The translations under genes and the position numbers were made by a program. This document shows positions 56,048 to 64,000 of a stretch of 64,000 nt of DNA, piece by piece; the first letter of the stretch is position 1, and the number at the start of each line of letters is the position of its first letter. The notes below the pieces were generated by a model. That model did not search any database. It had not been told where the DNA came from and saw nothing but the letters and a program-made list of their open reading frames with translations. This DNA is from Candidatus Bathyarchaeota archaeon (GTDB taxonomy: Archaea > Thermoproteota > Bathyarchaeia > Bathyarchaeales > Bathycorpusculaceae), in contig CAWDYC010000007.1 in the NCBI GenBank assembly GCA_963806535.1, forward strand, positions 32,001 through 96,000, in the 5' to 3' direction.

Positions 56048-57310
56048 TTACTTTTGGTTCCAATAAATATTGTATGCTGAAACGAAAGCAGTAAAGTCTT
56101 TAGAGTCTATTTTGCCGTCATGATTAAAGTCCGCCGCAGGATTAACATAGCCATTATTCCAATAAGAATTGTAAGCTCGCGAGAAGGCTATAAAGTCATT
56201 TCCGTCAACTCTAAAGTCGCCATTCAAGTCGCCTTTAGGAGTTACCCCGAGTGTTATTGGCGAAAAAGTGTTAGCCTGCCCCGATGAAGACTCAACATAG
56301 GCAGTAATCGTATAGTTTCCTATAGGCAAGTTTTCGCTGCCCAAAGAGCTGTTTATAATTATTGAGTTTCCGCTACCTAAAGTCTCCGTTCCATTGTATA
56401 TTAAGGTTGAAAAGTTTTTGGAAGTTGCAATCAAGTGAAATTGCGCGGTCTCTGAAGAGCTGCCCTTATTCTGCAATGAAATGCCTACGGGGAATGTAAA
56501 ACCGGACTCCACAAGAGATTGCTGCAGCATAATGTTAGTAACTGTAATGTTTGAAGGTGAAGAAGCAGTGGTAGCAGAATCAACAGGATTTATCAAAAAT
56601 ACAGGGTCAGCAAACCAACAATTGGCATTTGCTGATACATCACGCCCTTCAAACCAAGGAACCACAGAATCGATCTGAACAGAACTACATGAATAAGGTG
56701 CAAAGGGCAATGAATTAGACGAAATTGTAACATAATTATAATACGTAGTTGGAACTGTCAAATCCCAAGTTATCTGCGTCCAATCTTGACCCCAATGAAC
56801 ATAAGTTATTCCTCCCGTAAAACTGCTATAATCTTGTTCGATTTCTGCATTTTGCGGGTGCCCTGCTTGATGCCCCGCAGTATCAACAGTGGCTATTCCA
56901 TAACCCAAATTACTATGAATGTAAAAGTCTAAGCCTATTTCTGCTCCAGAATATTGACTGTTACTTGTGTAGGTTGCAGTTTTTATCCATGCCGAAAACA
57001 CAATATGGTCGCCTGGTTTAACGTTGAGCCAAGCTCCGTCAACCTCTCTTGTACCCCTAACATAGTCTGGTCCCGTCCGAATACTAACATCACCATTATG
57101 AAGAGTGCCATAATCAAGAGACGCATAAGAAGCAGCTGCACCATTCATATCAGGATAGAAGGCACTAATAGGTTCCAAATTTAGTGAAGAAGAGGGGGAA
57201 ACCGTAGTTGTACTATGAACAAGCAAAGTCAAGAACGGAAATAATGCCAAAACCACAAGAAACAACAAACAAAAAGATTTACGACTATTCTTAATTACGC
57301 ATCCCCTCAT
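56048..57310 (-). CDS. Secreted protein with CARDB-like and C-terminal dockerin-like domains
   Basis: Signal peptide; GDLNGDFRVDGNDF and ADFNHDGKIDSKDF repeats; start uncertain (57301-57328). Confidence 0.78.
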   Translation of the reverse strand: MRGCVIKNSRKSFCLLFLVVLALFPFLTLLVHSTTTVSPSSSLNLEPISAFYPDMNGAAASYASLDYGTLHNGDVSIRTGPDYVRGTREVDGAWLNVKPGDHIVFSAWIKTATYTSNSQYSGAEIGLDFYIHSNLGYGIATVDTAGHQAGHPQNAEIEQDYSSFTGGITYVHWGQDWTQITWDLTVPTTYYNYVTISSNSLPFAPYSCSSVQIDSVVPWFEGRDVSANANCWFADPVFLINPVDSATTASSPSNITVTNIMLQQSLVESGFTFPVGISLQNKGSSSETAQFHLIATSKNFSTLIYNGTETLGSGNSIIINSSLGSENLPIGNYTITAYVESSSGQANTFSPITLGVTPKGDLNGDFRVDGNDFIAFSRAYNSYWNNGYVNPAADFNHDGKIDSKDFTAFVSAYNIYWNQK

Positions 57311-57515
57311 CCCGTAATCCTCAAACATAGCCTGAGGGCTTTCCTTTGATGCTAAGGCTAATTTGCTTTATCTACATAGAATATATGGAAAATAGGAGCC
57401 ACAATAGTTGGAAGATTTACTCGTTGAGATTTTTTGTTGTAATTAAATAGACCAAAGGTATTCTTTTCGGCAAATTATAAAAACCTTATAAGACTTAGTT
57501 AAAGCAGTGCAAAAC

Positions 57516-58144: not shown

Positions 58145-58906
58145 TTATGTTGTGTATTTTTCGCCTTCGTTTAAAATCCGTTCAAGAGTCGTATTAATGT
58201 TGGTCATTCCCTCATTTGTTTTTGAAGAAAGAGGCATAAGCAAGAATTTCATACCGAGTTTATTTATCGCTTGCATCATATTACGGCTAAAAAGGCGTTT
58301 CGTACCTTCTAGTTTCTCTTCTATGGCGTCTTCAAGTGCTCTGGTGTTAGCTGACCAAGAAGCAATTGCCTGAACATCCTTTTTCGGTAACAAATCAGTT
58401 TTAGACAGCACATGAAGTTGGGGCTGGAAAAAACGGTTGAAAACAGCGGCTGAAAGAAACATGTTTGAGACATAGTTAAGTGGGTTAATTGAGAAGACTG
58501 CGTCAAAGAGGTAAATTAACGCCTTAGGCTCTTTTGTTAACTCGTTGACTATATACGGTCCGCTTGCTCTAAAGGCAAATAATTCCATTTGTCCAGGAGT
58601 ATCAACTAAAACAAAGTCAGCGTGAGCTTCCTCGATATCACGGGTTAAATTTTCAATTTCATCCGCAATTAAATCAGCGGCCATAATCAAAGCGCCATTC
58701 GGCCCCAAACCATACTTCTCCATTATATCGCCAACATCAACGTAATTGCGTACATCAACATCTGGAGAATATGGAAGTTTTAATGCTCCAGGATCCAAAT
58801 TGACCACAGCAACATCTTGTTTTGACATTTTCAGCCATTCACTAAACGCGGCTGTAAAAAGGGACTTACCAGAACCAGCTGTTCCAATAATAAACGTAAG
58901 AGGCAC
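58145..58906 (-). CDS. GPN-loop GTPase
   Basis: GTAGSGKS, NLDPG, LGPNG, DTPGQME and SKTD; GTG start at 58906 after a GGAG. Confidence 0.93.
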   Translation of the reverse strand: MPLTFIIGTAGSGKSLFTAAFSEWLKMSKQDVAVVNLDPGALKLPYSPDVDVRNYVDVGDIMEKYGLGPNGALIMAADLIADEIENLTRDIEEAHADFVLVDTPGQMELFAFRASGPYIVNELTKEPKALIYLFDAVFSINPLNYVSNMFLSAAVFNRFFQPQLHVLSKTDLLPKKDVQAIASWSANTRALEDAIEEKLEGTKRLFSRNMMQAINKLGMKFLLMPLSSKTNEGMTNINTTLERILNEGEKYTT

Positions 58907-59084
58907 TTTAATATCTCCAACCAACGATTGAATCATTCTAAAAGTAATAACCTTTCTGTAATAATCCCTTTTATTGTAACTAGTTTTAGTTTTTAGACCT
59001 ATGATTAGCCAACGGAGGATGAGTGTTATGCAGAGTGTGTAGCTAAACCAAATGGGCTTGGGTGTAATCATTTTAAAACTAATT

Positions 59085-59191
59085 GCTCAGCGAATCTAAC
59101 GTTCAACAAGGTGGGATAAGATTGGGGATTATATGGGCTGTTAAACGTTGATTCGCTGAGGCATTCCATTTGATGGACTGTATTTCTCGGC
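59085..59191 (-). ncRNA. Candidate structured small RNA B (may extend to about 58981)
   Basis: Stem of about 21 bp (59086-59108 with 59139-59160); TATA-like CTTAAG 25 nt upstream of a GCC start; stem homologous to RNA A. Confidence 0.55.
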
Positions 59192-59315
59192 AATAGGACA
59201 TACTATCATGGCGATTCTTAAGAATTTCACAAATATTCTATAGATTAAAAAGTAAACTACATTGAATTAGTAGGTGAGATCATTATTCTGCAGAATTTCA
59301 TTTTTAACACTTAAG

Positions 59316-59470
59316 AAAAAAAAGTCGTATCTGCCTTGGCGGATCAACGATAACTAGGAGCGTGCATAGGAAACGGGGAGGAGTCATGGCAAAATAGGAG
59401 TGGCTCACACCTGTGTCAGCGTTGATTCGCCAAGGCTACTGGTCGAGTGGTGAGGTAGCCGCCTTATGGC
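59316..59470 (-). ncRNA. Candidate structured small RNA A (about 155 nt)
   Basis: 17-bp stem with one mismatch (59333-59349 with 59420-59436); 5' hairpin GGCTAC/GTAGCC; TATA-like CTTAAT 25 nt upstream of a GCC start; T8 tract at 59323-59316. Confidence 0.6.
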
Positions 59471-59650
59471 TAAACTATTGAAGCGTAACCTAGAAATTAA
59501 GAGTTATACCAATAAACTATGTAGAAAATAGAAAACAATTTAATGTTTTATGGAGATAACCAATTTTTGGAAAAAGTATTGCTGAATTAAAATGGAAATC
59601 AAAATGCTTACCTATGAGAAATTAACTAATAACTTAGTGTAGTGCTTTGT

Positions 59651-59893
59651 TTATCTAAATGTTGCGCGTATCAATCGCTGGTAAATATAGATAAAGTAGA
59701 TTGCAGCGAAAGCTGTTAGTGTCACTTCAATTGTTAGGATTGATGGGCTTGACTCTACCGCTTTGAAATACCCTTGCATGAGGATGTCGGAAAAGACAAG
59801 GATTTGGAGGAAAATTGCACCGCCTAAACAGCTTAAGCCTAAACTGTGAATAACTAGGCTGATTCGATGATTTAGTTTTGGGTCGATAGTCAT
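59651..59893 (-). CDS. Small two-TM membrane protein
   Basis: 80 aa ORF with ATG, two hydrophobic segments and a promoter-like CTTAAG upstream. Confidence 0.65.
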   Translation of the reverse strand: MTIDPKLNHRISLVIHSLGLSCLGGAIFLQILVFSDILMQGYFKAVESSPSILTIEVTLTAFAAIYFIYIYQRLIRATFR

Positions 59894-59990: not shown

Positions 59991-60821
59991 CTACCCGAAC
60001 ATGCCCTTTATATAATTTGTAGTCAATTCACTTTCAGGCTTCTCGAAAAGAGTTTTGGTTTCATTGAACTCAATAAGCTCACCAACATACATAAAAGCTG
60101 TATAATCGGAAACCCTTAGCGCTTGCTGTAAGTTATGTGTAACTATTATAACAGTGTATTTTTCTTTAAGCTCTCCGACAAGGGATTCGATTCTTGAAGT
60201 AGCAGCTGGATCTAATGCGCTGCAGGGTTCATCCATCAGAATCAGTTCAGGTTCAGCAGCCAATGCGCGGGCTATGCACAGCCTTTGCTGTTGCCCACCT
60301 GAGAGACAAAAAGCGCTTTCATTCAATCGATCTTTTACTTCATCCCACAACCCAGCGCCTATAAGGCTATTTTCGACAATTTCCTTAAGTTTTTCTCCTT
60401 TCGCCGTGTTATGTATTCTAGGTCCAAAAGCTACATTTTCAAAAATTGATTTTGGGAATGGATTTGGTTTTTGAAAAACCATTCCAATTTTTCTCCTTAA
60501 GTCGTAAACATTACTATCGTCTCCATAAATATTTTGACCGCCAAAAATTATTTCGCCTGAGGTTTTGCAGCCAATAATAAAATCATTCATTCGATTAATT
60601 GACCGCAGAAGTGTTGATTTACCGCATCCTGAAGGACCCATTATAGCAGTTGTTGCATTTTCTCTTATTCCTATATCGACATCTTTCAGAACATGATTGT
60701 TTTTGAACCATAGATTGAATTTTTTTGTTTGGACTTTTCCCAAGTTTCCTCCTCCGGGTGACGAGTTGGCATTAACAAATGGTTTACCGTCCTTTCGTGT
60801 CTCAATTGGCTTCGATAACAA
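59991..60821 (-). CDS. pstB: Phosphate ABC transporter ATP-binding protein PstB
   Basis: [36 protein letters not shown] and [10 protein letters not shown] motifs. Confidence 0.95.
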
Positions 60822-60983: not shown

Positions 60984-62024
60984 ATGGTGTGGCAAACGAA
61001 ACAAGATGAAGAAACAAGAAAGGTCCAATTTACTGGCGGCTCAACTTATATTATTTCTCTTCCCAAAAGATGGATCTCTCAAAATCGAATAGAAAAAGGA
61101 AGCTTTATAAAATTACGTGAGGAAGAAGGCGGACTCTTAACAATTGTTCCACCAGGTTCATTAATTCATAACAAATTGGAAGAAGCAGTAATAAAAGTGT
61201 CTCTTGATGATGATTCCGAATCAATCACTCGAAAGATGGTGTCTGCCTATTTAGCAGGTTATGATTCAATTTACGTTAAAGCAGACAAACAGAATTTTTC
61301 AAATAAGCAAAGGCATGAAATGAAAAATTTTGTTCGACACATGCTTGTTGGAACCGAAATCGTAAGCGACACTTCCAATCAATTAATCTTGCAAGTTCTC
61401 TTAAGTTTTCCTGAATTGACCATTCAAAGCGCTTTAAGAAGAATGAGCATAATCACCAAATCGATGCACAATGACGCTGTAACGTGTATTACAACAAACG
61501 ATAAAGGACTTGCCAAAGAGGTCGTATCAACAGATAATGAGGTAGACAGATTCAATCTTTATGTAACTAGACTTTTGAAGACAGCCGTATACAGCCCACG
61601 ACTAATCAAAGAAATTGGGCTTCTAAACGGAGACGATTGTTTAGGATATCGCCTGGTAACAAAGTATGTTGAACGCACTGCTGACCATGCAGTGAGGATA
61701 GCAGAAAATGCATTGAACCTCAAGAGTACTCCAAATCATGAAATCACTCAAAGAATTGAAAAAATGAGCACAGCTGCCATAGAAATGTTTAGCAACGCAA
61801 TGGAATCGTTGTTTAGGCAAGACTACAAAGGCGCAGAAAAAATAATTCAAAGTCTCAAACAGCTTATAGACTTTGAAAAAGATGCCGTGTTGTTGTCTCA
61901 GTCAGATATAGAGCAAGATGCTATTTTGCGTTTGATTATTGAAAGCATAAAGAGAACCGCTGAATACGCGTGCGATATTTCGGAGATTGTTCTAAATTTG
62001 ACTATTGGTTCAATACTCGTGTGA
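60984..62024 (+). CDS. phoU: Archaeal phosphate uptake regulator (AbrB-like N-domain + PhoU domains)
   Basis: RKVQFTGGSTYIISLPKRW, DNEVDR, ERTADHA and KRTAEYACDISE motifs. Confidence 0.9.
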   Translation: MVWQTKQDEETRKVQFTGGSTYIISLPKRWISQNRIEKGSFIKLREEEGGLLTIVPPGSLIHNKLEEAVIKVSLDDDSESITRKMVSAYLAGYDSIYVKADKQNFSNKQRHEMKNFVRHMLVGTEIVSDTSNQLILQVLLSFPELTIQSALRRMSIITKSMHNDAVTCITTNDKGLAKEVVSTDNEVDRFNLYVTRLLKTAVYSPRLIKEIGLLNGDDCLGYRLVTKYVERTADHAVRIAENALNLKSTPNHEITQRIEKMSTAAIEMFSNAMESLFRQDYKGAEKIIQSLKQLIDFEKDAVLLSQSDIEQDAILRLIIESIKRTAEYACDISEIVLNLTIGSILV

Positions 62025-62755: not shown

Positions 62756-64000
62756 TTAACTCGGGCTATTGTAAGATATATAAGAGTTCATGAAAACAAT
62801 AAAATCCTTGGAGGTTATTTTTCCATCCTGATTAAAATCGGCTAAACCATTATAAACACTGAGATTTACTCGGTTAAAACCTACGTACGCTCCAGCAAAT
62901 GATATAAAGTCGTGACCATCAACTTTGAATTCACCGTTTAAATCACCTAAATATGTTATCTCCGCCATCTCTATTGTCGTATTCTTGGAATTAATGCTAG
63001 CTGTTATTGTGTAGTTTCCGACAGATAGGTTGCTCGTGTCTATTTGGGAAATAGCATTCGATGAATTATCGCTTATTACGACCGTATCGTTATACTCAAG
63101 TTTGTCGTTGGCGTAGATTTGAATCGTATTGGAGCCGTTTTGAACTGGTACGTTGATTGATAGCGGGAAACCTTTTTCAGTGTATGTATAATTAAGCGGT
63201 GATTCATGTTGACTATTGCCTGTATACATGTATATTCGATTTGTTGGTAATTGTCCAAGAAAATTTGCATCGACGACGGAATTCCAATCAGAAGCAAAAG
63301 TAACATTCCAAACGCCGATTTTGTTGAAGTAGAGGGATAGTGGCGTTGACCCATACAAGAAAGTTAGGTTGCCTGTTGCTGCTATCGGAATTAGGACGGA
63401 GTTTGAGCTAAAGTCTATTGCGGTAAGATCCTTATCAATTATATTGTAGTTGTATTCATAGTGAAGTTCTTCGAGAGGTACGGCCAGCTTAGCTGTTGTT
63501 TGTATTATTGCCAAATTAATCAGCAGATTTGCAGCAAGCGCTGTAGCTGAGTCGCTAGGAACTGCGTCTGAACGGATTCTGTATAGTCCAGTAGATTGAT
63601 CATAAAGCCCTGCTGAAGGGTCACTAAGCAAACTCCATGCTGGTATGTTCAGATTGCTTCCTGTTGTAATATTGTATGCTGCGCCGTTTAGCATTTCCTG
63701 AATTTTGTTTTGATCAGATGGGGGAAGCAAAGGATAAGTTGCGATTATTGATTGCCACGTCATTTGTGTGTTTTCAAGTCTTCTCTGTGAATTCGAGTCG
63801 GCATGTTGGACCACATAGTCGAGCCATTGGGGACTATTCCATAAGCTAGCTAAGTATCGGCTATGTATGTCTGTTAATAAGTTCTGTGTATTTGTAATAT
63901 TGGAATCATAGTTATACAACTTCCAAATTATTTGTTCAAAGCCGCCAGCTTCACATTCATAGAGCCCGTTAGCGGAAGTATATCCGTAGTACGCTCCGTT
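62756..64000 (-). CDS. Surface protein with C-terminal dockerin-like domain, 5'-truncated by the window edge
   Basis: GDLNGEFKVDGHDF and ADFNQDGKITSKDF; Asn/Thr-rich; frame continues toward the window edge. Confidence 0.78.
   Translation of the reverse strand, partial: NGAYYGYTSANGLYECEAGGFEQIIWKLYNYDSNITNTQNLLTDIHSRYLASLWNSPQWLDYVVQHADSNSQRRLENTQMTWQSIIATYPLLPPSDQNKIQEMLNGAAYNITTGSNLNIPAWSLLSDPSAGLYDQSTGLYRIRSDAVPSDSATALAANLLINLAIIQTTAKLAVPLEELHYEYNYNIIDKDLTAIDFSSNSVLIPIAATGNLTFLYGSTPLSLYFNKIGVWNVTFASDWNSVVDANFLGQLPTNRIYMYTGNSQHESPLNYTYTEKGFPLSINVPVQNGSNTIQIYANDKLEYNDTVVISDNSSNAISQIDTSNLSVGNYTITASINSKNTTIEMAEITYLGDLNGEFKVDGHDFISFAGAYVGFNRVNLSVYNGLADFNQDGKITSKDFIVFMNSYISYNSPS

Follow-up and report, generated by a model that had tools for sequence, protein, structure and literature searches.

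Two minus-strand units of like layout lie in an ORF-poor gap of the 64,000-nt stretch of Bathyarchaeia DNA analysed here (the window), unit A at approximately 59470-59316 and unit B at approximately 59191-59075. Their similarity raises the question of whether they are genes of a structured RNA and, if so, how such an RNA might act. Bathyarchaeia, which abound in soils, peat and sediments, are uncultured archaea, and in the openly searchable full-text literature, judged partly by title or abstract, no small RNA was found to be described from them. Comparative sequence analysis gives good support to the view that A and B are tandem genes of a real structured small-RNA family, approximately 120-160 nt in length and divided into two paralogous subfamilies. 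Having neither an Rfam match nor an earlier description that could be found, this RNA family is new.

Layout and helix of the two units

An earlier note on this DNA described the gap as about 740 bp long and free of credible ORFs. The gap exists, but its size is about 714 bp, and that only if the GPN-loop GTPase gene downstream starts at the ATG at 58936; an in-frame alternative ATG lies at 59071. Short ORFs within the units were rejected as genes, the 7-codon ORF of some B-type members not being conserved, and a coding reading of the 5ʹ domain was rejected because its indels are not multiples of three.

Several features that the earlier note had read in the units stand as described. In both, a TATA-like CTTAA(G/T) is followed after exactly 25 nt by GCC (CTTAAT at 59501-59496 leading to 59470, CTTAAG at 59222-59217 leading to 59191), and both minimum-free-energy folds contain a small 5ʹ hairpin. 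The TG/CA difference between the 5ʹ arms of the long helix is matched by CA/TG in the 3ʹ arms, a double compensatory change, and unit A ends in T8 (59323-59316). Unit A (59316-59470, minus strand), an A-type paralogue scoring 74.5 bits with covariance model R1 and 60.5 bits with model R2, is made up of 5ʹ hairpins, the long helix and an apical region with three CUCCU motifs, with the T-run at its 3ʹ end. Its helix joins the 5ʹ arm GCCTTGGCGAATCAACG (59436-59420) to the 3ʹ arm CGTTGATCCGCCAAGGC (59349-59333) and is extended inward. Unit B (59075-59191, minus strand) belongs to the B-type, the main subfamily, and scores 121.9 bits with R1 and 98.4 bits with R2. Its 5ʹ domain is A-rich and includes a hairpin of 59177-59173 with 59169-59165; its arms are GCCTCAGCGAATCAACG (59162-59146) on the 5ʹ side and CGTTAGATTCGCTGAGC on the 3ʹ side. 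The helix of unit B is longer than earlier described, comprising approximately 24 bp (59160-59139 with 59109-59086) with one bulged A at 59097. The apical region that it encloses (59138-59110) has 27 nt, of which 44% are C and none is G, and the tail, CAAUUAGUUUU, closes with a T-run of merely T4 (59078-59075). Within the family, the 3ʹ tail CAAUUCG is conserved and ends in a U-run. Compared with shuffled sequences, the folds have z-scores of -2.85 for unit A and -6.80 for unit B.

The helix was followed through two alignments, one made with MAFFT from the 39 distinct members found in genomes (A5) and one of 57 distinct rows that include metagenome members (A6), fitted to the model and containing one reverse-strand row. 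On A5 (n = 39), 91.3% of the cells of the long helix are paired; both sides have changed in 13 of its 24 pairs, and 2 pairs are invariable. Sliding the partner by 1-3 columns as a control lowers pairing to 24-45%, and none of 500 column shuffles attains the observed covariation score or paired fraction, so that the covariation first seen between A and B holds across the family beyond chance. On the 57 rows, 95% of the long helix is paired, in an alignment that was itself fitted to the model. Some helix positions are near-invariant (G-C in 38/39 members, A-U in 39/39, C-G in 39/39), and these conserved positions, together with the covariation, support the earlier idea of a constant handle.

The transcribed strand is fixed by two further observations. 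At three helix positions (one of them with 17 GU, 13 AU and 3 GC), the most frequent pair is G-U or U-G, and such pairs would be C-A mismatches on the opposite strand. On metagenome contigs, moreover, model scores run to 86-151 bits in the forward direction, whereas reverse-strand echoes reach 32-50 bits.

Predicted transcript ends and the apical domain

That each unit has its own promoter-like element and T-run, as the earlier note held, can be read directly in the sequence, and we infer that the RNA has its own promoter and terminator and hence predicted transcript ends. Among sequencing runs searched for 58800-59750, none of RNA contains this stretch, and three of DNA contain small shares of it. 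Upstream of unit A (59496-59526, minus strand), the conserved block TTCTACATAGTTTATTGGTATAAC is followed by the BRE/TATA-like AACTCTTAAT, a layout that also precedes the A-type members L040, L042 and L035. Upstream of unit B (59217-59243, minus strand), the palindrome TCTATAGA is followed by ATATTTGTGAAAT and then by the TATA-like TCTTAAG. At B-type loci, the upstream block TCTATAGATTATTTGTGAAACTCTTAAGA is nearly invariant, and A-types carry a variant of it. By a loose regular expression, a BRE/TATA-like match is present in 38 of 40 members, usually 21-26 nt upstream of where the model hit begins.

The sequence GAAACTCTTAAGA, the part GAAAC-T-CTTAAGA of the B-type block and the element of unit A agree with the AAAC-N-CTTAAAT-like boxes that precede the 39 tRNA genes of the same genome, which supports reading the motif as TATA and placing the start near GCC. 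Member L038 lacks the whole 5ʹ domain, but the spacing between its promoter block and the beginning of the RNA body is unchanged, which is the behaviour expected of a promoter. The 5ʹ hairpin UUUGC ... GCAAA, paired at 78% on A5 and 87% on A6, takes in U residues 5ʹ of GCC, and the true 5ʹ end of the RNA may on this account lie a few nucleotides upstream. Searched for in its own genome with up to 6 mismatches, the B block recurs only as one weak site at 6 mismatches besides unit B itself. The palindrome TCTATAGA is specific to the RNA family, which suggests that a dedicated regulator may act there.

Across the 39 members, the apical domain has a mean length of 43 nt (range 24-53 nt) and consists of 35% C and 11% G, as against 40.8% G+C in the window's own genome (2.95 Mb, 12 contigs); the C-rich character that had been seen in the two units thus extends to the family. 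The loops had also been called unrelated in sequence and exchangeable, and here the picture is divided. Those of the A and B paralogues do differ, and it is mainly between these that the loop changes; however, the B-type apical sequence GGAUUCCC-AAAUCU-YUUKCCCAU is kept across species, and a GAYUCC-like motif occurs in 30 of 40 members by a loose regular expression, among them 3 of the 5 A-types, unit A included, but not unit B. Several CUCCU motifs are found in unit A only and are not conserved among A-types. The core, UCCC or GAYUCCC, differs from the anti-Shine-Dalgarno sequence CCUCC.

An apical pseudoknot was sought in 34 non-A-type sequences, the five A-types being left out. A strict H-type pseudoknot with a UCCC-type loop 3 occurs at the homologous place in five of the 34 (L019, L023, L026, L031 and L050), with 0-2 of 40 shuffles scoring as high, and L023 and L031 have compensating changes in both pseudoknot stems. 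Three others (L029, L037 and L062) have a pseudoknot at another place or with another loop, which 2-6 of 40 shuffles equal. The remaining 26, including unit B and the largest subgroup, have no strict pseudoknot, and since the homologous place is occupied in just five of the 34, the structure was rejected as a family-wide feature.

Distribution, genomic setting and known RNA classes

BLAST finds homologues in 11 of 41 related genomes, the window's own counted, and no relative in 16 genomes from 11 other families of the order. A covariance model was built and archaeal genomes were searched, with results that agree with the structured family foreseen by the earlier note: the structure covaries, and model R1 has matches in 25 of the 61 sampled genomes of the genus (18 of the 38 high-quality ones) and none in the other 36. 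Model R2 matches 0 of 145 genomes from 69 other genera of the taxonomic family and, at E up to 0.1, none of five near-complete genomes from within the genus. As many genomes of the genus, these five included, are without it, the RNA family is accessory, and as far as such sequence searches extend it is restricted to one genus of uncultured soil and peat Bathyarchaeia. Among lineage markers, McrA was not found in a search whose control gave a signal; archaeal AmoA was not found either, a weak negative, since its control gave none.

An exact two-arm pattern, run on 185,579 species genomes, occurs in 19 stretches, of which 16 are labelled Bathyarchaeia or Bathyarchaeota. One of the other three (L057) has a full model match, and the two without a model match are chance. 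The pattern also occurs in 34 metagenome contigs, all 34 of which have forward R2 matches of 86-151 bits. Contig L057, of 14.5 kb and labelled a Limnocylindrales MAG, has a B-type RNA of full length, which scores 97 bits with R1 and 126 bits with R2, and its neighbours (ftsY, an unknown ORF and AHSA1) are those of the Bathyarchaeia loci; in view of both, the contig is probably archaeal and was placed in the wrong bin.

Each matched genome has 1-4 model matches, some of them reverse-strand echoes. The A-type members are unit A, L040, L042, L035 and L055:4454-4603, and the tandem A-B order recurs in L055. More divergent paralogues are present in genome G013 (C10:46538, C2:127519 and C38:10448), whose weak copies score 36-55 bits with R2, and a metagenome contig has a second weak hit (L086:1680-1828) approximately 630 nt upstream of a B-type copy. 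Subtypes beyond A and B may thus exist.

Clustering of flanking ORFs resolves two main loci for the RNA. At locus I (19 loci), the RNA is flanked at one end by a gene resembling ftsY plus an unknown divergent ORF and at the other by a small basic ORF in convergent orientation, beyond which comes an AHSA1-domain gene. Locus II (approximately 13 loci, including that of the window) is downstream of a pstB-like gene, and TM80, wHTH or GPN GTPase genes occur close by without a fixed order. Copies of the A-type and more divergent ones are sited elsewhere. In the window, the upstream neighbour is TM80 (59651-59893, minus strand), an 80-aa predicted membrane protein with no Pfam match, and the downstream neighbour is the GPN-loop GTPase (58145-58936, minus strand; Pfam ATP_bind_1, E 2.2e-58), both outside the RNA. 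Homologues of TM80 adjoin the RNA, upstream or downstream, in some locus-II genomes. Among the first 13 related loci, tblastn places the GPN GTPase downstream in L005 only; ORF clustering adds L031, which brings to 3, with the window's own, the genomes in which the GPN GTPase cluster (c29) comes after the RNA. Because neighbours differ between loci and the next gene is convergent in 19 of them, the RNA is independent rather than the leader of one gene.

Candidate partner proteins were sought among these neighbours. Homologues of the locus-I flanking ORFs P0001 and P0002 stand side by side in the window's own genome, 155 nt apart at C5:113762-114488, with no RNA between them; as this locus I is intact but empty, the RNA gene was either lost there or never entered. 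P0001 and P0002 were rejected as partners, the pair standing without the RNA in this genome. The wHTH neighbour P0003 was rejected because it is near-universal, being present in 49 of 61 genus genomes regardless of the RNA. TM80, present in 32 of the 61, shares 18 genomes with the RNA, adjoins it in only 4 of these and was likewise set aside; the RNA occurs without TM80 in 7 genomes, TM80 without the RNA in 14 and neither in 22, counts that do not lend themselves to valid statistics because the genomes are related. Neither the neighbours nor the two presence/absence profiles point to an effector or partner protein, or to a guide function.

Two smaller features of the surroundings may be recorded. 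A lone pstB-like ABC ATPase gene (59991-60821, minus strand) is divergent from a gene (60984-62024, plus strand) whose product combines an AbrB/MazE-type N-terminal domain with PhoU domains, a possible phosphate-regulatory pair beside the RNA locus. An 18-nt direct repeat, identical at 16 of 18 positions, links the 3ʹ tail of unit B (59066-59083) to the start of the GPN GTPase gene (58931-58948). ATGATT is present in both copies, at 59071 and at 58936, within one and the same reading frame, giving a possible 45-aa N-terminal extension, and the repeat could be a small duplication or chance.

Rfam 15 (4,227 models) has no match at gathering thresholds in the whole 64-kb window, and the four rows obtained on 58900-59700 at E up to 10 score 11.9-22.8 bits against thresholds of 40-86, which is chance level. 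The window also contains no tRNA or tmRNA. The earlier description of an undescribed structured small-RNA family, with no likeness to tRNA, SRP or RNase P RNA, is supported by these results and by the conserved, covarying helix. A housekeeping role was rejected, housekeeping RNAs being universal and this family absent from 36 of 61 genus genomes with R1. The SRP RNA of the same genome lies elsewhere (C4:359408-359723, 145 bits). The archaeal RNase P RNA model is matched best by a 189-nt stretch at C9:153724-153912 (L045), whose 22.1 bits fall short of the cut-off of 84; the genome is 92% complete, and its RNase P RNA may be a divergent or reduced one or may be missing from the assembly. A C/D-box-like match to plasmodium_snoR30 (59545-59621, plus strand; 22.8 bits, E 0.74), 5ʹ of the unit A promoter, probably reflects chance in AT-rich sequence.

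The archaeal modification guides offer the nearest general comparison, being likewise small structured RNAs with a constant protein-binding part and variable guide parts. In C/D box sRNAs, the C (RUGAUGA) and D (CUGA) boxes form a K-turn, and guides of 10-12 nt lie upstream of D or Dʹ; H/ACA sRNAs have a pseudouridylation pocket, an upper stem with a K-turn or K-loop, and ACA 3ʹ of the lower stem. The RNA described here differs from both in being without their boxes, and no Rfam snoRNA or sRNA model matches it at threshold. On reading of the sequences, a C/D assignment was rejected in the absence of RUGAUGA; A-types have no CUGA, and in B-types it is confined to the paired 3ʹ arm. An H/ACA assignment was rejected because the continuous helix of approximately 24 bp, with its one bulged A, leaves no pocket, no K-turn and no conserved ACA.

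Candidate functions

The reading favoured here, to which a probability of approximately 0.45 is assigned, is that of a trans-acting regulatory RNA that would use its C-rich apical domain as an interaction surface and its helix as a scaffold. The helix would be stabilising, protein-binding or both, and would present the apical domain, with its core GAYUCCC, to G-rich sequences in other RNAs, most plausibly in translation-initiation regions. Because their apical domains differ, the A and B paralogues would address different partners, and a dedicated transcription factor at the upstream palindrome might control expression of the RNA. Shine-Dalgarno sites are in use in the organism, its 16S rRNA ending in GGATCACCTCCT at the 3ʹ end and Shine-Dalgarno-like motifs peaking at -15 to -10, and this use, together with archaeal precedents, makes the pairing idea plausible.

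In Firmicutes, small RNAs pair with G-rich Shine-Dalgarno regions through unpaired C-rich stem-loop motifs. This UCCC-motif group includes the Rsa RNAs, RsaE/RoxS and IsrR (PMC2790875, PMC5419742 and PMC9410917). The RNA described here likewise presents a C-rich motif on a stem-loop; however, the Firmicutes RNAs are bacterial, with no homology and no Rfam match to link them to this family, in which a single long helix is combined with a 5ʹ domain. Closer as a model of action are sRNA154 and sRNA41 of Methanosarcina mazei, archaeal stem-loop RNAs that are intergenic and independently transcribed; loop 2 of sRNA154, and sRNA41, mask ribosome-binding sites (review, PMC5867862). They come from another phylum and were compared by description rather than by sequence. 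The helix here, of approximately 24 bp, is much longer than theirs and its sequence is conserved, the core is UCCC-like with no clear anti-Shine-Dalgarno sequence, and the pairing is predicted. In Haloferax volcanii, the intergenic sRNA132 of phosphate starvation is tied to phosphate ABC transporter operons (PMC6560208). At one of its two main loci, the RNA described here closely follows a pstB-like gene and has a PhoU-domain gene in its vicinity, but there is no sign of kinship or phosphate control, and 19 other loci adjoin ftsY.

Pairing with ribosome-binding sites, as proposed in the earlier note, received no support from a crude comparison of duplex energies in one genome, which used 2,215 start regions with guessed start codons, internal windows and shuffled loops. 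Neither loop prefers start regions: the mean energy is -15.8 at start regions, -15.6 at internal windows and -16.0 with shuffled loops for unit A, and -9.9, -9.1 and -9.8, respectively, for unit B. The top duplex hits are not credible because duplexfold gives them structures with long interior loops. Short-word BLAST of both RNAs against their own genome returns chance-level matches only; an 18-mer at C5:371776 is not another RNA copy, and a match within a membrane-protein ORF at C5:20234 is at chance level. Duplexes with the start regions of five neighbouring genes include nothing convincing. An 8-nt match, found by eye, of AUAAUCCC in unit B to GGGAUUAU upstream of the GPN gene is within chance.

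A protein-binding or structural role would account equally well for the strongly conserved sequences of the helix and the B-type apical domain. On this explanation, held tentatively as the main rival of the trans-acting reading and nearly as likely, the RNA would be a scaffold, a sponge or an RNP component that titrates or carries a dedicated protein, bound at the conserved bulged-A helix, at the apical motif GGAUUCCC-AAAUCU or at both. The invariant helix positions (38/39, 39/39 and 39/39) go beyond the needs of structure, the tail CAAUUCG is kept across species along with the apical sequence, and the pairing comparison is without signal at start regions, all of which favour such a role. However, no candidate partner has emerged: neighbours differ between loci, the wHTH gene is distributed irrespective of the RNA and TM80 is beside it in few genomes. 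A more specific variant, which would be something of a long shot, makes the RNA one half of a lineage-specific RNP, in which a protein encoded elsewhere grips the bulged helix and the paralogues, A and B as well as divergent copies like those of G013, serve as interchangeable specificity modules. If so, the C-rich apical domains would steer the complex to different RNA targets, and the system would be guide-like yet without relation to the C/D, H/ACA, CRISPR or Argonaute guides.

It is improbable that the RNA senses a ligand or a condition, or acts as a ribozyme, either through an apical pseudoknot or through a GGAUU that switches between AAUCC upstream and AAUCU downstream. The five strict pseudoknots, with compensating changes in L023 and L031, speak for such a device, but most sequences have none or place it elsewhere, no Rfam riboswitch or ribozyme model matches and no downstream gene is consistent. 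A 5ʹ leader or attenuator that acts in cis on the same-strand downstream gene, which would be the GPN GTPase here and wHTH elsewhere, is very improbable. Locus-II genomes do have a same-strand gene within approximately 25-160 nt, and the short T4 of unit B makes read-through conceivable; nevertheless, the riboswitch or leader class was rejected, the next gene being convergent in 19 loci and wHTH, GPN GTPase or TM80 elsewhere, and unit A precedes the promoter of unit B rather than a gene. The least probable explanation is a DNA-level element (a MITE or another mobile inverted repeat, or else a site of recombination or inversion) for which RNA pairing would be irrelevant. The varied contexts, the empty and ancestral-looking locus I of the window's own genome and the 18-nt repeat between the tail of B and the GPN start region would suit it. 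Against it, the 1-4 matches per genome are too few for a MITE, of which many copies with target-site duplications had been named in the earlier note as the mark; in its own genome the DNA query recurs only at this locus, with no flanking duplication besides the 16/18 repeat. Furthermore, the many G-U pairs would be mismatches in DNA, strand asymmetry is strong in both base composition and model score, and a promoter and a T-run flank each copy.

Whether it proves to be a trans-acting regulator, as favoured here, or a protein-binding RNA, the family offers a concrete handle on the post-transcriptional or RNP biology of Bathyarchaeia. Its narrow distribution and unproven function limit its wider impact at present. 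Its members vary enough in nature for the helix to be defined. Available for follow-on work are a covariance model, predicted ends and a conserved palindrome that points to a dedicated regulator, and the family is suited for addition to RNA family databases. Elsewhere in the window, two genes on the minus strand (56048-57328 and 62756-63919) encode large, secreted-looking proteins with similar end repeats (DLNGDFRVDGNDF... and DLNGEFKVDGHDF..., respectively), which we take to be putative dockerin-type calcium-binding repeats.
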